Assembly (NCBI GenBank): GCA_011056645.1
Contig: DSEL01000186.1
Location: 1 to 57,533 of the forward strand
DNA length: 57,533 nt
From: Candidatus Sediminicultor quartus
Lineage (GTDB): Bacteria > Atribacterota > Phoenicimicrobiia > Phoenicimicrobiales > Phoenicimicrobiaceae
Direction: 5' to 3'
The notes under the pieces were generated by a model. It saw only the letters and a program-made list of their open reading frames with translations. It was not told where the DNA came from and did not search any database. This document shows, piece by piece, positions 145 through 8,981 of this stretch. Positions within the stretch are counted from its first letter, which is position 1; the number at the start of each line of letters is the position of its first letter. A program made the position numbers and the translations under genes.

Positions 145-1419
145 TTGGCACTATTATCTTTATTAATTTCTTTCGTAGTTTTATTAATTATCGGTTTTCC
201 TATTGCATTTAACTTATTGCTAAGCTCAATAATTTATTTAATAGTTGGAGGATACCCTTTAACTTTAGTTACTCAACGAATGTTTGAAGGAATGAATGGA
301 TTTGCTTTATTAGCTGTCCCATTTTTTGTGCTTACCGGACAATTTATGGTAAAAGGGCATCTTCTTCGTTCTTTAACGGATTTCGTTAATGCTTTTATCG
401 GTCATGTAAGAGGAGCTTTGGCTCTGGTAACAATCGGAACTTGTTTATTTATGGGATCAATTGTAGGTTTAGCTCTTGCAGAAATTGCATCTCTGGGTTC
501 ATTTTTAATTCCAATGATGAAAGAGGAGGGATATAAACCAGCTTTTAGCTCAGCTGTAATGGCAAGTGCTTCATTACTTGGACCTATAATGCCGCCCAGT
601 GTACTAATGATTCTGTATTGTATGTCAGTAGGTCGAACCTCGATTGCAGGCTTATTTCTTGCAGCAATTATTCCAGCATTTATTATTGCTTTTTTTCAGA
701 TGGTAACTGTTTATTTTATTGCAAAAAAGCGTAATTACCCAAGCCATTCAAAGACTAATTGGCCAGAGAAGTGGACTCAATTTAGAAAATCTATACCAGC
801 CCTTTTTTTGCCTATAATTATTCTAGGTGGAATTTTTGGTCGTATTTTTACAGTTACTGAAGCATCTGCAGTCGCTGCACTATATGCTTTTATTGTAAGT
901 TTTTTTGTATTTCGAGAAGCAAAATGGTCAGATCTGCCAGGTATTTTTTTAGAAACTGCCTTAACATCAGGTTTAGTTATTTTATTAGCTGGCACTGCTA
1001 CAGTAACTGCTTGGGCTATTGCTAATGAACGGATCATTTATATGTTGGTTGAACCACTTTCTAATGTTCCTACATGGGTTTTTCTATTATTAGTAAATAT
1101 ATTACTATTAATAAATGGAATGTTTATGGATGATTATGCTTCAGTCGTAATATTAGGTCCAATTCTTGCTCCAATTGCTTGGAAATTGGGAGTTGACCCT
1201 TTACAAATTGGGGCGATTGTATGCGTAAATTTGGTAATTGGACTTGCAACTCCACCCTTTGGTATCGCTCTTTTTGTCACTAGTCCTATGGCAGGAGTAA
1301 AAATTGAAGATACCGTTAAAGAAGCTTTACCTTTTATAGCTGTAAGTATTGCAGCGCTAATTTTAATAACTTATATTCCACAGCTCACTTTATGGTTACC
1401 TAGACTTTCTGGCTATTAG
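145..1419 (+). CDS. dctM: TRAP transporter large permease
   Basis: 424 aa, highly hydrophobic, TRAP-M motifs (LLAVPFFVLTG, GPIMPPS, GLATPPFG). TTG start after an AAGGAG RBS. Confidence 0.95.
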   Translation: MALLSLLISFVVLLIIGFPIAFNLLLSSIIYLIVGGYPLTLVTQRMFEGMNGFALLAVPFFVLTGQFMVKGHLLRSLTDFVNAFIGHVRGALALVTIGTCLFMGSIVGLALAEIASLGSFLIPMMKEEGYKPAFSSAVMASASLLGPIMPPSVLMILYCMSVGRTSIAGLFLAAIIPAFIIAFFQMVTVYFIAKKRNYPSHSKTNWPEKWTQFRKSIPALFLPIIILGGIFGRIFTVTEASAVAALYAFIVSFFVFREAKWSDLPGIFLETALTSGLVILLAGTATVTAWAIANERIIYMLVEPLSNVPTWVFLLLVNILLLINGMFMDDYASVVILGPILAPIAWKLGVDPLQIGAIVCVNLVIGLATPPFGIALFVTSPMAGVKIEDTVKEALPFIAVSIAALILITYIPQLTLWLPRLSGY

Positions 1420-1518: not shown

Positions 1519-2538
1519 ATGAGTAAAAAGTGTATAGCAGTTTTATTAGTATTACTATTAGTATTGTCTCTATCAAGTGTTGGGTTTGCTGCAACAAAAG
1601 TGAGAATTTCGGTTTGTAATGCCCCCACCCATCCACAAAATATTGGTTTGGAAATATTTAAGAATTACGTGGAAGAAAAAACTAATGGCGAAATGATAGT
1701 AGATGTATATCCTAATTCACAACTTGGTGCCGAAAGAGAATCAGTAGAACAATGTAAGAATGGTTCTTTAGAAATGGCTACTGCTTCTGCTGGTCCATTG
1801 ACTACTTTTAATAGTAAATTTATGGTTTTAGATATTCCTTTTGCTTTCAATAGTTACGATGTAGCTTGGATGGTTTTAGATGGTCCGGTTGGGCAGAAAT
1901 TACTTGAATCTTGTGAAGAAGTTGGACTAAAAGGATTGAGCTTTATGGAAAATGGTTTTCGTCACGTTACTAACAACGTACGACCAGTTACTAAAGTAGA
2001 AGATTTTGCAAATATTAAGATTCGTACTATGGAAGCTCCAATGCACATGGAGAATTTTAAATTATTAGGTGCTAATCCTACTCCAGTTCCATGGACTGAA
2101 CTATATTTAACTCTACAACAAAAAATAGTGGATGGTCAGGAAAATCCTTTGGCAAATTTATGGGAAGTTAAGATGTACGAAGTGCAAAAATACGCTTCCT
2201 TAACTGGTCATATTTATGATCCTATGCCATTAGTTGCAGATTTAAAATGGTTTAATGGCTTAACTCCTAAACAACAGAGCATTATTGAAAAAGGTGCAAT
2301 TTTAGCGCAAAATTACAGTAGATTTGTTAACAACGCCCGCGAAGAAGAGTTGGCCAGACTATTAACTGAAAAAGGAATGATAATTAATGATGTTACAGAT
2401 GAGGAAAAAGCAAGAATGAGAGATGCTTCTCAGGCTAAAGTAGTAGAGGCGATCAAGAAAAATACTGATCCAGCTTTCGTAGATGAGTGGCTAAAAGCTA
2501 TTGATAAAGCCGGGGAAGATATTAAAGCAGGTCTATAA
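1519..2538 (+). CDS. dctP: TRAP transporter substrate-binding protein
   Basis: Signal peptide; motifs YPNSQLG, ENGFR, KIRT, NPTPVPWTELY and DGQENP. AAGGAG RBS. Confidence 0.95.
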   Translation: MSKKCIAVLLVLLLVLSLSSVGFAATKVRISVCNAPTHPQNIGLEIFKNYVEEKTNGEMIVDVYPNSQLGAERESVEQCKNGSLEMATASAGPLTTFNSKFMVLDIPFAFNSYDVAWMVLDGPVGQKLLESCEEVGLKGLSFMENGFRHVTNNVRPVTKVEDFANIKIRTMEAPMHMENFKLLGANPTPVPWTELYLTLQQKIVDGQENPLANLWEVKMYEVQKYASLTGHIYDPMPLVADLKWFNGLTPKQQSIIEKGAILAQNYSRFVNNAREEELARLLTEKGMIINDVTDEEKARMRDASQAKVVEAIKKNTDPAFVDEWLKAIDKAGEDIKAGL

Positions 2539-2550
2539 TATTAACTCTGT

Positions 2551-2584
2551 TTCAGGAGAAAGGCGCACCTGCTTTTCTCCTGAA
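2551..2584 (+). terminator. Stem-loop after dctP (terminator or mRNA-stabilising hairpin)
   Basis: TTCAGGAGAAA ... TTTCTCCTGAA 11-bp inverted repeat just after the dctP stop. Confidence 0.6.
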
Positions 2585-2636
2585 ACCTTTTTATAATATC
2601 GAAATTATTGTAAAAGAACAGCTATTCAAGTAAGAG

Positions 2637-3155
2637 GTGGGTAATATAGTGAATGAAGTAGAAAAAAACTGGTTTTTTAAACTTTGTGATATATTAGAAA
2701 AGATTACTTTATATACTGTAATGATAATATGTGCAACAATGTTAATTGTAGCTTGGGTACATGTAATAAGAAGATATATTTTTAATAATTCTTTAACTTG
2801 GTCTGAAGAATTTCTTAGATTCTCTTTAGTATGGTTTGCTTTATTAAGTGCCAGCATTATTCACAAAAAACGTGGTCATTTAGGTATAGTTACTTTTCGG
2901 GAAATGATGCCTAAAAAAATTCAGATATTTTTAGAGAGATCTTTACCCTATTTAGCATTAGTAGCTACTTCGTTGACTGCTATTTATGGTGTAAATTTAA
3001 TGATAAGAGTACAAGGACAGTTTTCACCAGCTTTAAGGATCCCGGTTGCTTTACCTTATGCCGCTATTCCAATATCGTTTATTTTAATGACCTTATATGG
3101 AATAGCTCATATAATCGAAGATTTCAAAGTTGCTTTAAAAGTAAAAAATAATTAA
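2637..3155 (+). CDS. dctQ: TRAP transporter small permease
   Basis: About 4 TM segments and the RRYIFNNSLTWSEE motif. The in-frame GTG at 2649 is better spaced from the RBS and may be the true start. Confidence 0.9.
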   Translation: MGNIVNEVEKNWFFKLCDILEKITLYTVMIICATMLIVAWVHVIRRYIFNNSLTWSEEFLRFSLVWFALLSASIIHKKRGHLGIVTFREMMPKKIQIFLERSLPYLALVATSLTAIYGVNLMIRVQGQFSPALRIPVALPYAAIPISFILMTLYGIAHIIEDFKVALKVKNN

Positions 3156-3184: not shown

Positions 3185-4474
3185 ATGTATTTTACTGAGA
3201 CCAAAGATAAAAATGTTATTTACTATGATACAGAAGAGAAAATAAAAATTACAATAAATGAAGAAAAATATCATGGTTTAATCAGTATAAAAGAGCCAGA
3301 AGAATTAAAATGGCCGGAAGAATTTAAGAAATCCCTTGAAAAACCTATTAATAGTAAATTACTAAGAGTGTTAGCGAAAGGTGTTAACAAGGTAGTTATT
3401 ATTGTTTCTGATTCTACCCGGGGAGTACCTACTTCAAAAATTATACCGATAATTCTTAAGGAACTTCAAAGTGCGGGAGTAGATTTTAAACAAATAGTTA
3501 TAGTAATTGCACTTGGAGTTCATAGACCAGCAACTTCAAGAGAAATTGAAGAAATTATTGGTAAAGATTATTTAAAAAAAGTAAAAATTATAAATCACGA
3601 TCCTTACAATAAAGAGGAATTGGTTTTTTTAGGTAAGACTTCTTTTGGTACTCCAATAGAGGTAAACAAAACCGTTTTTCAAGCTGATTTAAGGATAAAT
3701 ATAGGAAAAGTTGAACCTCATGAATTTGCAGGGTTTTCCGGTGGGAGAAAGTCAGTTTTACCTGGAATTAGCAGTGAAAGGACCATAAAAGAAAATCATA
3801 GACCTGAAATGATCCTGAAATATGGATCAAGACCTGGTTGTTTAAAAGATAATTCAATACATAAAGATATGATAGAGGCAACAAAAATGTTAGGAATTCA
3901 CTTCAGTATAAATTTTGTACTTAATTCAATGGGTCATACCATTGGTCTTTTTGCGGGGAATATTTTTGATGCTCATCAAAGAGCAGTTGAATTTATAAAA
4001 TCATTTTGTCAAGTAAAGATAAAAGAGAAACCTGATATTGTAGTTACTACGCCCGGGCCTCCACTAAATATTGATTTTTATCAATCTATTAAACCATTAA
4101 TTTCTCTAGAGTCGATTATGGCTGAAAAGGGGATAATAGTATTGTATAGTTTGTGTCCCGATGGTTTTAACTCAGATGATATGCTCTTACCATTTAAAGG
4201 GGTGAAAAGTTTGGATGAGGTAGTCAGTAAGCTTATGAAAAATTATAAAATACAAATGGATCATGCACTTCTTTTATGTAAAATATTAAAGAAGAATATA
4301 AAAATTATTACTTCATCACCTAATTTAGAGGAACAAACATTAAACAAAATATATCTGGAGTATTTTAGAAATCCACAAGAAGCAGTAAATAGAGCTTTAG
4401 ATATATCCGGAAAATTTAAACCTAAAGTATTGTTTTTCCCGCAGCCACAGAGGACTTTACCGATCCTGGTTTAA
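3185..4474 (+). CDS. larA: LarA-family nickel-pincer (NPN)-dependent 2-hydroxyacid racemase/epimerase
   Basis: Motifs SDSTR, ALGVHR, PHEFAGFSGGRKS, ENH and FYQSIK match the conserved D/R, H, H/K, H and Y/K residues of LarA. Substrate unknown. Confidence 0.9.
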   Translation: MYFTETKDKNVIYYDTEEKIKITINEEKYHGLISIKEPEELKWPEEFKKSLEKPINSKLLRVLAKGVNKVVIIVSDSTRGVPTSKIIPIILKELQSAGVDFKQIVIVIALGVHRPATSREIEEIIGKDYLKKVKIINHDPYNKEELVFLGKTSFGTPIEVNKTVFQADLRINIGKVEPHEFAGFSGGRKSVLPGISSERTIKENHRPEMILKYGSRPGCLKDNSIHKDMIEATKMLGIHFSINFVLNSMGHTIGLFAGNIFDAHQRAVEFIKSFCQVKIKEKPDIVVTTPGPPLNIDFYQSIKPLISLESIMAEKGIIVLYSLCPDGFNSDDMLLPFKGVKSLDEVVSKLMKNYKIQMDHALLLCKILKKNIKIITSSPNLEEQTLNKIYLEYFRNPQEAVNRALDISGKFKPKVLFFPQPQRTLPILV

Positions 4475-4578: not shown

Positions 4579-5853
4579 ATGAATAAATTTAAAATTACAG
4601 CCATTAAAGCAAGAGAGATCTTAGATTGCCGCTGGACTCCTACTGTTAGAGTAGAAGTTCAGGTAAACAATGAAATTGTTGGGCAAGCTGATGCACCGGC
4701 AGGACGTTCTACTGGATTAAATGAAGCAAGTGAATTGAGAGATAATGAAGAGCGTTTTAATGGTTTAGGAGTAACCAAGGCAGTTAAAAATGTTAACGAA
4801 ATTATTGCCCCAGCATTAATCGGTATGGATGTTACTGAGCAAAGAAAAATAGACTATAAAATGATAGAACTTGATGGAACTAAGAATAAAGAAAATTTAG
4901 GTGGAAATGCAATAATTGCAGTATCTTTAGCATGTACTCGCGCTGCAGCTAATGCAATGGGTTTACCATTATATCGATATATTAATCCAAATGCTCACGT
5001 ATTACCAGTTCCATTGTTAAATCTTATTAATGGCGGAAAACTTACTTCTAATGACCTTGATTTTCAAGAAGTGTGTATATTCCCAGTAGGCGCTAAATCT
5101 TTTAAACAGGCAATGGAAATTGGGTATGCTGTAAATGAAGAGTTAAGAACTATAATTATCGACAATTACGGTAAAATTGCAGCAAATGTTGGAGATGAAG
5201 GGGGATTTGCTCCGCCAATTGTCAAAGTTCGTGAAGCAATGGATCATTTAGTTCATGCAGTAGAGCTATCTGGATTTGCTGATAAAATTGTATACGGATT
5301 TGATTCTGCCGCCAGTCATTTTTATGATAAAGACACCAAGCTTTACAATTTAGAAGGAAACAAATTAACTACTAATGATATGATTAATTATTATAAAGAT
5401 TTAATAAGAAGTTATCCAATAGCAACGATCGAAGATCCCTTAGATGAAAATGATGTTGAAGGTTTTATCCAGGTGACCAAGGAATTAGGTATTCAAATTG
5501 TTGGAGATGATTTTTTCTGTACCAATCCTGCTTTAATCAAAGAACGTTCCAGTTTAGGGGGAGCAAATGCTTTATTGTGGAAATTTAATCAAATTGGTAC
5601 TGTTTCAGAGGCTTTGGATGCCGCACAAATAGCCTTTAGAAACAGTATGGGGATTATGGTTTCAGAACGTTCAGGTGAAACAGAAGATCCAATTTTAGCA
5701 GATTTTACTGTTAGCCTTAACGCTGGGCAGATTAAAACCGGTGCTGGAGTGCGCAGTGAAAGAACTTCGAAATACAACAGGCTTTTACAAATTGAACAAG
5801 AACTTGGTTCTTTGGCTAAATATGCGGGAAGAGATTTTAAGATGGCCCTTTAA
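4579..5853 (+). CDS. eno: Enolase-family protein, divergent paralog
   Basis: AREILD, GDEGG, IEDP, VGDD, KFNQIG, RSGETED and QIKTG are present, but both conserved His residues are replaced (see findings). Family call is firm; activity is uncertain. Confidence 0.85.
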   Translation: MNKFKITAIKAREILDCRWTPTVRVEVQVNNEIVGQADAPAGRSTGLNEASELRDNEERFNGLGVTKAVKNVNEIIAPALIGMDVTEQRKIDYKMIELDGTKNKENLGGNAIIAVSLACTRAAANAMGLPLYRYINPNAHVLPVPLLNLINGGKLTSNDLDFQEVCIFPVGAKSFKQAMEIGYAVNEELRTIIIDNYGKIAANVGDEGGFAPPIVKVREAMDHLVHAVELSGFADKIVYGFDSAASHFYDKDTKLYNLEGNKLTTNDMINYYKDLIRSYPIATIEDPLDENDVEGFIQVTKELGIQIVGDDFFCTNPALIKERSSLGGANALLWKFNQIGTVSEALDAAQIAFRNSMGIMVSERSGETEDPILADFTVSLNAGQIKTGAGVRSERTSKYNRLLQIEQELGSLAKYAGRDFKMAL

Positions 5854-5905: not shown

Positions 5906-7261
5906 GTGATTTACATTAAAAACAAAAAACAGTTATTATCTCATGGTAATATAGAAATGCGCAAGGCTGCTTTAGAAATAATTGAGCATTCATTAGAAAA
6001 AGCCGACCCGTATATTGCAACTAAGAATTTAGTCTCTTTAAAGAATAATAATTTACATGTTGGAAGCTTAACTTTCAATTTGCAAAATCATAAAAGAATT
6101 TTTATTCTAGGAGCCGGAAAAGCTACTTTTCCAATTGCGAAAGCACTAGAGGAAATTTTGGGGGATAAAATAACTGATGGAATAGTGATTTGTAAATACG
6201 GGCAAGAAGGATACCTAAAGTATTCTAAATTATACTTAGCTAATCACCCTATTCCGGATGAAGCTGGGCTTCTGGCGACCAAAGAGGCTATAATATTAGC
6301 TAAAAAAACAAGACCGGGAGATATAGTATTTGCCTGCATTACCGGTGGTAGTTCTGCACTTATGCCCTTACCGGTATCTGAAGTGAGCTTAGAAGAAAAA
6401 AAAGTAGTAAATAAGTTACTGCTTACTTGTGGTGCTAATATAATTGAAATAAATGCTGTTCGCAAACATTTAAGCCAAGTAAAGGGTGGTAGACTCGCAA
6501 AAAACATTCACCCAGAAGCACATTTAATTAACTTGACTGTATCTGATGTTATTGGTGACCCTTTAGATTATATTACCTGTCCGACTGTTCCCGACACTTC
6601 TACATTTAATGATGCTCTAAATGTAATTTCCAAGTATACACTTTGGGAGAAATTACCGGTATCTGTAGCGAACTACCTTAGAAATGCTACTTCAGAAATG
6701 GAAACTCCAAAAGATCTTTCCAATTATCATTTATATAATTTTATTATTATAGCTGGAGATACAGCTTGTGTTGCAGCAGAAGCAAAAGCAAAAGAAATGG
6801 GTTTTAATACAATGATCCTTTCAACTATGTTTGAAGGAGAAAGCAAGGAATTAGGGAGAGCTTTTGTATCAATTGCTAAAGAAATTATAATAAATAAGAG
6901 ACCGCTTAAAACTCCTTGTGCTTTAATTGGTGGGGGTGAAACTACCATAAAGTTAGAAGGGAATTATGGAATGGGTGGTCCAAATCAAGAGTTTACTCTG
7001 AGTGCTGCGCTCTATTTAGAAGGTTTGAAAGATATAGTGATAGTAGGATTGGATACTGATGGTACGGATGGACCAACGAAAATTGCCGGAGCTATTGTAG
7101 ACACCGACTTTACTTTCATGGCAAAAAAAATAGGCATATCACTCCAGCATGAACTTGATTGGCATAACACTGTGGAAGTTTTTGAAAAAATGGGTGATGC
7201 AATTATCACCGGATCTACCGGAACAAATGTAAATGACCTTAAATTCTTATTAATTTTTTAA
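5906..7261 (+). CDS. Glycerate 2-kinase / MOFRL-family kinase
   Basis: GAGKA, TGGSSAL, RKHLSQVKGG, SDVIGD, GGETT, GGPNQE, DTDGTDG and TGTNVND motifs. Start moved from 5741, which overlaps eno, to the GTG at 5906 behind GAAGAGGG. Confidence 0.9.
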   Translation: MIYIKNKKQLLSHGNIEMRKAALEIIEHSLEKADPYIATKNLVSLKNNNLHVGSLTFNLQNHKRIFILGAGKATFPIAKALEEILGDKITDGIVICKYGQEGYLKYSKLYLANHPIPDEAGLLATKEAIILAKKTRPGDIVFACITGGSSALMPLPVSEVSLEEKKVVNKLLLTCGANIIEINAVRKHLSQVKGGRLAKNIHPEAHLINLTVSDVIGDPLDYITCPTVPDTSTFNDALNVISKYTLWEKLPVSVANYLRNATSEMETPKDLSNYHLYNFIIIAGDTACVAAEAKAKEMGFNTMILSTMFEGESKELGRAFVSIAKEIIINKRPLKTPCALIGGGETTIKLEGNYGMGGPNQEFTLSAALYLEGLKDIVIVGLDTDGTDGPTKIAGAIVDTDFTFMAKKIGISLQHELDWHNTVEVFEKMGDAIITGSTGTNVNDLKFLLIF

Positions 7262-7320
7262 AACAATAAAAAATGAGGAATCACCTAATAAATATATATA
7301 TTTTGAAGGAAGGAATAAAT

Positions 7321-7980
7321 ATGATTTTTCTAAAAAAGGAACCAAAGATAATGGCCCAAGAAATAACTACCGATATTAGGAGAGCAATAGCGAATGGCAT
7401 TATTAAGCCAGGTGAAAAAATTAATGAAACACAAATTGCAAGAGATATGGGTATTAGTCGTTCTCCAGTTAGAGAAGCATTGCAAATGCTGAAAAAAGAA
7501 GGAGTTGTGGTCAGTATTCCTTATAAGGGAACATTTGTAAACTTGCTTGGGAAAAAAGATATTGAAGATATGTATATTATAAGAGGATTACTTGAGGCTT
7601 ACGCTATAGAAAAAGTAATAGAAAATAAAAATGAGAAAATTTTAAAATGTTTAAGAAAAAATATTGAAGACATAGAAAAAGATGTGAAAAAAAACCAATT
7701 GAAAGAATTGGTTAGCAAAGATATTGAATTCCACCGTAATATTTGCATTTTTTCTGGCAATAAAAAATTAATTGATATTTGGGAAGGGTTTCAAACGCAA
7801 ATAGAAGTTTTGATTGATTTAGAGAGTAGTTTTTATGAACGCTTCCAATTATTAGCGGTTGAGCATAGGGAATTGCTTTCTTTAATAATTGATGGAAAAG
7901 TTGAACAAGCTCAAGAAAAGATTAAAGCCCATATTTTACAAGCCCTTGATTTTTTAAAAAAAAGTTTGAAGAAATATTAA
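7321..7980 (+). CDS. GntR/FadR-family transcriptional regulator (FCD domain)
   Basis: N-terminal wHTH (GISRSPVREAL) and C-terminal FCD (DIEFH, EHRELL). ATG at 7321 after GAAGGA chosen over 7273. Confidence 0.9.
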   Translation: MIFLKKEPKIMAQEITTDIRRAIANGIIKPGEKINETQIARDMGISRSPVREALQMLKKEGVVVSIPYKGTFVNLLGKKDIEDMYIIRGLLEAYAIEKVIENKNEKILKCLRKNIEDIEKDVKKNQLKELVSKDIEFHRNICIFSGNKKLIDIWEGFQTQIEVLIDLESSFYERFQLLAVEHRELLSLIIDGKVEQAQEKIKAHILQALDFLKKSLKKY

Positions 7981-8024: not shown

Positions 8025-8981
8025 TTGGCTTATCATATTTTAATTACAAAACATATACCAAGCGAAGGATTAATAGATTTAAAAAAATATTGTAATATTT
8101 ATATGCCTGAAACTGAAAGCAAATCATTTTCTCAGGAAGAGCTATTTCGTTTAGCACCTCATTTGGATGCAATTATTTCGGTTGGTGACGTAATTGGCGC
8201 GGATTTTATAAAGAAAGCTAAAAAATTGAAAATAATTAGTAATTATGGTGTTGGGTACGACAATTTAGATATAAAGGCCGCTAATAAAAAAGGAATTATA
8301 GTTACAAATTTACCCGATGTAGTTACAGAAAGTACAGCAGAATTAACATTTATGATTATGTTAGCAGTAAGTCGCCGACTAATTGAAGCAGATAGATATA
8401 TAAGATATGCAAATGATAAAAACTGGCACCCGTTTTTATTTAATAGCCACGAACTTTTTGGCAAACTTCTTGGTATTGTGGGCTTTGGAAGAATTGGCAA
8501 AGCCGTAGCAAGAAGGGCATTAGCTTTTGGAATGCAAGTTTATTATTTTGATGTCTCGCATGATAGAGAAACTGAGTTAGAAGTTAATTTCTTATCTTTT
8601 GAAAAAATACTTAGCGAAATGGATTATATTACTTTACACGTTCCTTATATGAAAAGTACTCATCATTTAATTGGTGAAAAAGAGTTAAATATGATGAAGA
8701 AAAGCTCTTACCTAATAAATGCTTCTCGAGGAGCGGTAATAGACCAAAATGCATTAATAAAAGCCTTAAAAGAAAAGAAAATAAAAGGAGCAGCCTTAGA
8801 AGTATTTGAAACTGAACCATATGTTCCAGAAGAACTAACTTGCCTTCCTAATGTGGTATTAACTCCTCACATGGGGACAAATACAGTAGAAACGAATATT
8901 AAAATGACTAAAGAAGCTGCGAAAAAAATAATTCAAGTATTTCAAGGTGAAATTCCAGCTAATATTATAACATCTAATTGA
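8025..8981 (+). CDS. D-2-hydroxyacid dehydrogenase (glyoxylate/hydroxypyruvate reductase-like)
   Basis: YGVGYDN, GIVGFGRIG Rossmann motif, NASRG, catalytic E (EP) and PHMG. TTG start after AGGAG. Confidence 0.9.
   Translation: MAYHILITKHIPSEGLIDLKKYCNIYMPETESKSFSQEELFRLAPHLDAIISVGDVIGADFIKKAKKLKIISNYGVGYDNLDIKAANKKGIIVTNLPDVVTESTAELTFMIMLAVSRRLIEADRYIRYANDKNWHPFLFNSHELFGKLLGIVGFGRIGKAVARRALAFGMQVYYFDVSHDRETELEVNFLSFEKILSEMDYITLHVPYMKSTHHLIGEKELNMMKKSSYLINASRGAVIDQNALIKALKEKKIKGAALEVFETEPYVPEELTCLPNVVLTPHMGTNTVETNIKMTKEAAKKIIQVFQGEIPANIITSN

Follow-up and report, generated by a model that had tools for sequence, protein, structure and literature searches.

To our knowledge, the enolase family proper is usually treated as a single-reaction family, although it belongs to a superfamily of diverse mechanisms. 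The combination of a glycerate 2-kinase with an enolase forms the lower branch of the non-phosphorylative Entner-Doudoroff pathway, of the serine cycle, and of tartrate and glucarate catabolism. Apart from the statements on the mycobacterial enzyme cited next, the roles of the yeast active-site residues His159, His373 and Ala38 are taken from the general enolase literature. The His159 equivalent of Mycobacterium tuberculosis enolase, His154, is involved in phosphate protonation or contact and in loop closure (PMC10619443). The only documented recruited enolase homolog that we found, PhpH, acts as carboxyphosphonoenolpyruvate synthase and is encoded in gene clusters of the phosphinothricin type (PMC4748306). 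In this study, we analyzed a stretch of 57,533 nucleotides from Candidatus Sediminicultor quartus (contig DSEL01000186.1, hereafter the window), which carries an enolase paralog at positions 4579..5853 of the forward strand. The paralog represents a real, conserved and undescribed variant of a known enzyme kind, named here E-type enolase. Its residues and gene context lean, on balance, towards a catalytically competent enzyme that would constitute the second half of a two-gene kinase-plus-lyase unit yielding phosphoenolpyruvate (PEP) or a very close analogue. Rather than serving glycolysis, it is likely to complete the degradation of a hydroxy acid taken up by the cell.

The paralog is encoded by an intact open reading frame (ORF) of 424 aa with an AGGAG ribosome-binding site 8 nt 5' of its start. 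Its Pfam matches to Enolase_N and Enolase_C (E-values 2e-52 and 2e-101), together with its AlphaFold2 model, identify the two-domain TIM-barrel fold of enolases. The model has a pLDDT of 90 and a TM-score of 0.96 to the archaeal enolase MJ0232 of Methanocaldococcus jannaschii (PDB 2PA6), which is the nearest solved structure with 55% identity. Four motifs are altered, namely DCRWTPT (canonical DSRGNPT), PAGRSTG, NGGKLT and SERSGETED (canonical SHRSGETED). The codons of C17-R18-W19 (yeast S13-R14-G15) lie at 4627..4635, with TGC for Cys17 at 4627 and TGG for Trp19 at 4633, and those of R43-S44 in lid loop 1 (yeast A38-S39) at 4705..4710, where the new Arg (CGT at 4705) adjoins a retained Mg(II) ligand Ser. 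The counterpart of yeast His159 in lid loop 2 is Leu155 (CTT, 5041..5043), and that of His373 at the end of strand 7 is Glu363 (GAA, 5665..5667), the invariant hallmark of the family. All these codons are on the forward strand, and checking them bore out what a sequence-only reading of this DNA had noticed, that both active-site histidines are replaced in addition to the Arg43 and DCRWTPT changes. A further family signature missing from its list is His247 (yeast Glu251), encoded at 5317..5319 of the same strand.

The residues around these positions are kept. The metal ligands are S44, D242, E285 and D310 (yeast S39, D246, E295 and D320), and the catalytic set comprises the base K335 (K345), the acid E207 (E211), E164 (E168), Q163 (Q167) and K386 (K396), with R364 and S365 (R374 and S375) as the phosphate-binding pair. 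With canonical enolase (EC 4.2.1.11), the E-type enolases accordingly have in common the two-domain fold, the Mg ligands, the catalytic Lys and Glu, the second Glu, the Gln, the Lys396 equivalent and the phosphate-binding Arg and Ser, and presumably also the two-metal anti-elimination chemistry. They differ from it in the changes of His373 to Glu, Glu251 to His, Ala38 to Arg and Ser13 to Cys, to which the subclade of the window paralog adds His159 to Leu. They are also set apart as a separate clade of non-housekeeping, patchily distributed genes with a dedicated kinase of the MOFRL type.

The family was sampled as the 120 closest clusters at 90% identity from 5.8 billion proteins, with 63-95% identity to the paralog, and was compared with 65 canonical enolases from Bacteria and Archaea. 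Signature positions were computed with 37 family members against those 65. The replacements are conserved to a degree far above chance. Glu363 is found in all 120 family clusters, while His occupies the position in 65 of 65 canonical enolases; Cys17 is found in 116 of 117 clusters versus Ser (yeast Ser13) in 65 of 65. His247 is present in 115 of the 120 clusters, compared with Glu in 92% of the canonical set, and His occurs at this position in only about 3% of 173 His373-bearing sequences. Position 43 is Ala (yeast Ala38) in 65 of 65 canonical enolases and carries an Arg/Lys signature in the paralog family. His159, replaced by Leu155 in the window paralog, is present in essentially all of the 65 canonical sequences, in line with the near-invariance of both histidines in glycolytic enolases that the earlier reading had asserted. 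The retention of the base, the acid, the Mg ligands and the phosphate-binding pair, which it had also described, extends to the whole family: S44, Q163, E164, E207, D242, E285, D310, K335, R364, S365 and K386 are invariant across the 120 clusters. The specificity-determining positions between the two sets are C17, R43, H247 and E363, with minor ones in lid loop 2 and the domain linker, and the window paralog carries all four of these signatures on an intact core.

In a maximum-likelihood tree, the family, with the window paralog in it, forms a single clade outside the 65 bacterial and archaeal enolases, with a Shimodaira-Hasegawa-like approximate likelihood ratio test (SH-aLRT) value of 100 and a stem of 0.43 substitutions per site. 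Its members come from Bacillota, Thermodesulfobacteriota, Synergistota, Chloroflexota, Actinomycetota and Pseudomonadota (Gammaproteobacteria), and also from metagenomes of sediment, digester, fermentation and sludge origin. Judged from the alignments and the tree, the E-type enolases are a large monophyletic family apart from the glycolytic enolases rather than a single decaying copy, and the paralog is under purifying selection with its catalytic core intact. Public annotation of the family members is uniformly 'phosphopyruvate hydratase', and nothing describing an E-type enolase family or the SERSGETED motif was found in the literature. Note that a representative library at 50% identity contains the family only as one fragment of 317 aa (P0196), despite the 120 full-length clusters at 90% identity, and searches of that library would therefore miss it.

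Two subclades make up the family, one with Leu155 and the motif NGGK-L-T (88 clusters, including the window paralog) and one that retains His155 (32 clusters). Among the Leu155 clusters, 85 have Arg and one has Lys at position 43, where the His155 clusters vary between R, K, L and M. Position 19 or 20 is aromatic in 84 of 85 Leu155 clusters versus none of the 32 His155 clusters, and in two deep Leu155 lineages the aromatic residue has moved by one position to give DCRGFPT and DCRGWPT. According to the tree, the change of His159 to Leu arose about three times within the family. The distribution fits an exchange in which the phosphate contact made by His159 of lid loop 2 would have passed to Arg43 of lid loop 1, after which His159 would have become dispensable. 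The earlier suggestion that the new Arg replaces a lost His-phosphate contact agrees with this distribution, Arg43 being near-fixed where His155 is lost; however, the association is not statistically demonstrable because the loss happened only about three times, which gives a phylogeny-aware test too few independent events. For the pairing of Leu155 with an aromatic residue and with strict Arg43, three independent transitions were counted, two of them concordant, and significance is unreachable with so few.

The E-type enolase is an accessory copy beside the housekeeping enolase. A canonical eno gene with all motifs was found on another contig (C102) of the window's genome, so the gene in the window is a true paralog and not the sole enolase, as its description in the sequence-only reading had implied. 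In a set of 41 genomes from the same genus, family or order, a canonical eno is nearly universal, and only two, the window's genome and G031, carry the paralog. In the ten other carrier genomes, the canonical eno is clear in eight, is split over contig ends in a ninth, and was not found in G031, which is 84% complete. With its own clade, a canonical copy elsewhere in the genome and a patchy distribution, the paralog is neither placed among the glycolytic enolases of its lineage nor a housekeeping copy. The carrier genomes contain other glycerate kinases as well: four of the 11 have a second, stand-alone MOFRL kinase, and three of the 11 have a glycerate kinase of the GlxK type, including the window's own genome (C146:1534-2622, 509 bits, away from the operon described below).

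A kinase gene lies 53 nt downstream of the paralog, at 5906..7261 on the forward strand, with a GTG start at 5906 behind a GAGGG motif. Its product contains the DUF4147 and MOFRL domains of the glycerate 2-kinase family and scores 330 bits to PH0495 and 293 bits to TM1585, which we take to be glycerate 2-kinases. Gene contexts of the E-type enolases were collected from exact-protein look-ups, from a genome scan yielding at least seven family loci, and from 82 metagenome loci recognized by the SERSGETED codon pattern; 80 loci were dereplicated into 37 groups at 90% enolase identity, 36 of which have any neighbour. A MOFRL gene adjoins the paralog in 30 of these 36 groups and is present in at least 25 of the 27 groups with at least two genes on each side, and the two genes are on the same strand in 65 of 67 cases. 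One apparent exception to the linkage (L009) turned out to be an ORF-calling artefact, since the kinase was recovered there by tblastn. Fifteen enolase-linked kinases, the window kinase included, form one clade (ultrafast bootstrap 100, SH-aLRT 99) that excludes four MOFRL kinases encoded on their own in the same genomes as well as the PDB proteins TM1585 and PH0495, and the topology of this clade mirrors the enolase tree. Adjacency and a kinase clade that mirrors the enolase tree therefore identify paralog and kinase as a co-inherited pair, and this pair runs parallel to the standard glycerate kinase and enolase in the same genomes. The known pathways that join glycerate 2-kinase and enolase resemble it in the order of a MOFRL-type kinase followed by enolase-type dehydration to PEP, and enzyme kinds that make D-glycerate occur in some E-type contexts. 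They differ in employing the housekeeping enolase with a kinase of the TM1585/PH0495 type, whereas here both proteins belong to separate, co-diverging clades.

Taken with the strict coupling to the kinase, the intact core suggests a working two-metal enolase-type lyase acting on a 2-phospho ester made by that kinase. The product would be PEP or something else that central metabolism accepts, because no downstream enzyme is conserved: none was found with the enolase-kinase pair in the 36 dereplicated groups, where neighbours other than the recurrent ones given below are sporadic. In the proposed sequence of events, the TRAP (tripartite ATP-independent periplasmic) transport system encoded upstream would import a 2-hydroxy carboxylic acid. 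Its D-(2R) form would be supplied either by inversion at C2 through a LarA-type enzyme or by a D-2-hydroxyacid dehydrogenase reducing the 2-oxo form. The co-evolved MOFRL kinase would phosphorylate the 2-hydroxyl group, and the resulting 2-phospho acid, coordinated by two Mg2+ ions, would then undergo the usual enolase chemistry in the paralog. Lys335 is predicted to take the C2 proton and Glu207 to protonate the leaving group at C3, aided by Glu164 and by the new Glu363/His247 pair. The phosphate would be held by Arg364, Ser365 and Mg(II), and by Arg43 of the lid loop in place of the lost His159. The PEP, or very close PEP analogue, so formed would pass straight into central metabolism. We infer the order of the steps, the exchange of Arg43 for His159 and the product of the paralog from these features.

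For the substrate, the balance tips slightly to a 2-phospho acid analogue, either 3-substituted or C4, and 2-phospho-D-glycerate itself is nearly as probable. An analogue is favoured by the co-divergence of the enolase and kinase clades, which run parallel to canonical enolase and to further glycerate kinases encoded by the same genomes, by the family-wide replacement, after a long stem, of residues that are invariant in glycolytic enolases, and by carrier genomes that already hold the standard enzymes and whose linked LarA is unlike the known glycerate racemase. The sequence-only reading had proposed a neofunctionalised dehydratase for a 2-phosphoglycerate analogue. This proposal is supported in part, in that the gene is a paralog belonging to a separate family with its own clade and an intact catalytic core; an analogue as substrate is only slightly favoured. 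Its suggestion of a 2-phospho-tetronate receives weak hints from the TRAP binding protein, whose relatives bind erythronate or pantoate, and from a LarA pocket that resembles those of sugar-acid epimerases. Sulfolactate, isoserine, tartrate and C4 sugar acids were weighed as substrates, and none of them was singled out by the gene contexts. A more radical departure, which we consider unlikely, is that glycerate is no substrate of the pair: a 3-substituted 2-hydroxypropanoate such as isoserine, 3-sulfolactate or 3-mercaptolactate would be activated by the kinase, and its phosphorylated form would lose ammonia, sulfite or sulfide in the paralog and so yield PEP. A cationic or strongly polar substituent at C3 would at least be compatible with the additional carboxylate at position 363 and with the acidic E and D residues of the linked LarA.

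The paralog could also be a phosphopyruvate hydratase isozyme that converts 2-phospho-D-glycerate to PEP in a site rewired by compensated changes, with His373/Glu251 turned into Glu/His and Arg43 functionally replacing His159. Together with a glycerate 2-kinase it would make up a transferable glycerate-to-PEP funnel, whose variable feeders would be a racemase, a reductase, an aldehyde oxidoreductase and aminotransferases. We regard this as a serious contender, with a chance somewhat short of even, and a number of observations weigh on its side and against an analogue. The first-shell residues handling the carboxylate, the C2 proton, the C3 hydroxyl group and both metals are all unchanged. The paralog scores 514 bits with TIGR01060, above the equivalog cut-off of 300 for phosphopyruvate hydratase, although the canonical enolase of the same genome reaches 689 bits, 175 more. 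For the partner kinase, a relationship to the glycerate 2-kinases named above is clear. Several gene contexts point to plain D-glycerate as well. The operon dehydrogenase is closest to glyoxylate/hydroxypyruvate reductases, and other loci contain a tartronate-semialdehyde-reductase-like gene with an aldolase of the dihydrodipicolinate synthase family (L102), an aldehyde:ferredoxin oxidoreductase with a class-V aminotransferase (L008), or a phosphoglycerate-mutase-family gene (L101). Glycerate racemase activity is documented in the LarA family (PMC11770544). The combination of varying upstream enzymes, a constant pair and nothing conserved downstream is the pattern of a funnel into a central metabolite. 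An isozyme is harder to reconcile with the family-wide replacement of His373, Ser13 and Ala38, each 100% invariant in the canonical set, and with an operon LarA whose specificity residues E,F,D,H are not those of the glycerate-preferring LAR type (F,F,W,Q). Gelria carries the paralog twice in one cluster, and the pair would be redundant in carriers that have a canonical enolase and often another glycerate kinase. The glycerate operons known to us have no private enolase.

Two further explanations were rejected. An enolase-like protein that has lost catalysis or moonlights in regulation, structure or binding might be suspected from the replacement of two residues deemed important for catalysis, and the yeast H159A variant is severely impaired. 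We nevertheless hold it to be very improbable: it was ruled out because the whole catalytic set, with every metal ligand and acid/base residue, is invariant over 120 clusters from several phyla, and it would leave the strict same-strand coupling to a kinase that would make the substrate to be accounted for. Enolase paralog clades that truly lack the acid Glu look quite different. A biosynthetic role like that of PhpH, in which the substrate would be a 2-phosphoglycerate analogue altered at its phosphoryl group, as in phosphonate pathways of the phosphinothricin type, was judged even less credible. It has a precedent in PhpH, a documented recruited enolase homolog (PMC4748306), which the E-type enolases resemble, by description only, as paralogs within the enolase family proper recruited to a non-glycolytic pathway with a 2-phosphoglycerate-like substrate. 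Of the three first-shell changes, Ala38 to Arg and His159 to Leu affect the side of the active site that faces the phosphate, and the best NCBIfam match of the operon's GntR regulator is a phosphonate-associated regulator, though with 104 bits it is far under the cut-off of 271.5. PhpH is, however, biosynthetic and located among Streptomyces phosphonate genes, while the E-type family is found in catabolic-looking operons over six phyla, with importer, regulator, kinase and racemase. Genes for PEP mutase, phosphonopyruvate decarboxylase and a PhpF-type nucleotidyltransferase are absent from the operon and from the approximately 36 dereplicated contexts, and the role was rejected on this gene context.

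The enolase paralog and its kinase belong to an operon of eight genes, all on the forward strand, in the order dctM, dctP, dctQ, larA-like, enolase paralog, kinase, gntR and D-2-hydroxyacid dehydrogenase. The same eight genes are present in G031 with 64-85% identity. A recent transfer of the operon was considered from its G+C content, 32.7% versus 37.5% in the rest of the window, and was rejected since the difference is too small. The operon starts with the three TRAP genes, encoding the large permease DctM (145..1419, Pfam DctM 377 bits), the solute-binding protein DctP (1519..2538, Pfam DctP 292 bits) and the small permease DctQ (2637..3155, Pfam DctQ 96 bits). The best PDB match of DctP is the ligand-free 4p47, and its next relatives bind 2-keto-3-deoxygluconate, pantoate or erythronate. 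A 17-bp G+C-rich hairpin followed by a T-run was found by a scan for terminator-like elements at 2549..2586 of the forward strand, directly after dctP and before dctQ. It is possibly an intra-operon attenuator, through which the amounts of binding protein and membrane subunits may be adjusted relative to each other.

The fourth gene (3185..4474) encodes a LarA-family nickel-pincer 2-hydroxyacid racemase or epimerase with the Lar_N and LarA_C domains. It shares with the LarA superfamily these domains, the catalytic His and the Lys motif for binding the nickel-pincer nucleotide (PHxFAGFSGGRK), and it stays under every NCBIfam equivalog cut-off, the best being a malate racemase model with 360 bits against a cut-off of 500. 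The specificity positions and functional groups of LarA homologs have been defined (PMC11770544). At these positions (F175, F176, W358 and T359 of LarA1) the window homolog has E, F, D and H, two of the four being acidic. This differs from F,F,W,E/Q of lactate/glycerate racemases, from Y,F,H/Q,T of hydroxyglutarate racemases and from ..,H/Q,K of malate racemases, and comes nearest to the sugar-acid pattern E,V,A,H of gluconate 2-epimerases. A motif EPHEFAG...IQMDHALL is common to the window LarA and five other enolase-linked LarA genes. By these residues, the E,F,D,H type is a conserved LarA subfamily that matches none of the published functional groups. A gene for the nickel-insertion protein LarC is present elsewhere in the window's genome (contig C11:26062-27204, 480 bits, away from the operon), and the LarA cofactor can therefore probably be made.

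Downstream of the kinase, the operon encodes a transcriptional regulator with GntR and FCD domains (7273..7980) and a D-isomer-specific 2-hydroxyacid dehydrogenase (8025..8981) with the 2-Hacid_dh and 2-Hacid_dh_C domains, which is similar to glyoxylate/hydroxypyruvate reductases and has the glyoxylate reductases 2dbq, 6bii and 5aov as its best PDB matches (259-264 bits). Recurrent neighbours of the pair among the 36 dereplicated groups are LarA and GntR (12 groups each), the TRAP proteins DctM, DctP and DctQ (10, 9 and 8 groups) and the D-2-hydroxyacid dehydrogenase (8 groups). At two spore-former loci, L005 of Neobacillus sp. 19 and L101, the pair is found under a sigma-54 activator and without LarA or TRAP genes. 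Neighbours of the L005 pair are a gene of the glyceraldehyde-3-phosphate dehydrogenase family and a major facilitator superfamily transporter, and the L101 pair is accompanied by the phosphoglycerate-mutase-family gene already mentioned. On the chromosome of Gelria sp. Kuro-4 (L007 and L103, G042:C1, about 2,866,000-2,880,462), two E-type enolase copies are located about 10 kb apart, in the order LarA, first enolase copy, fused TRAP permease, octopine-dehydrogenase-like gene, hydantoinase A and B, NMT1-type binding protein, second enolase copy and MOFRL kinase.

Other divergent enolases were observed outside the E-type family. Within the same order, some genomes have as many as seven enolase-like genes, with at least two further divergent paralog types besides the canonical enolase. 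Such loci are found in G034 (C5:114348-115616, C10:10814-12010, C10:83946-85190, C10:95896-97077 and C11:51419-52630), in G025 on C44 and G038 on C21 (loci L107-L113), and in G049 (L105). One type has the motif SARSGETE (His373 to Ala) with Glu168 changed to Asp and GQLKVG, and the other has SIRSKSTN and has lost the acid Glu (GDEGG to APGIT). A representative search retrieved many more such clades, in which position 373 is occupied by A, G, I, V, N or S. His was found at the Glu251 position in 10 of 30 His373-lacking paralog sequences outside the E-type family, compared with about 3% of His373-bearing enolases. As a candidate rule, a histidine relocated to position 251 upon loss of His373 was rejected: the association was not significant in a phylogeny-aware paired test with 5-7 independent losses, and we record it as an observation only. 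From the sequences, the enolase family proper seems to include a large uncharacterised radiation of paralogs.

The E-type enolases are a cross-phylum clade in which residues invariant in glycolytic enolases are replaced, which has its own co-evolved kinase clade and which coexists with the standard enzymes. If they act on a new substrate or with a new leaving group, anaerobes and soil bacteria would have a new catabolic route leading to PEP, many database records of 'phosphopyruvate hydratase' would be corrected, and the linked LarA subfamily and TRAP importer would gain a testable function. Should a leaving group other than water be true, it would be a new reaction class in the enolase family proper and a new ATP-neutral route from such acids to PEP. 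If the E-type enzymes are still 2-phosphoglycerate enolases, they would constitute a natural experiment in which both 'essential' histidines became dispensable through Arg43 and the Glu/His exchange between positions 251 and 373.

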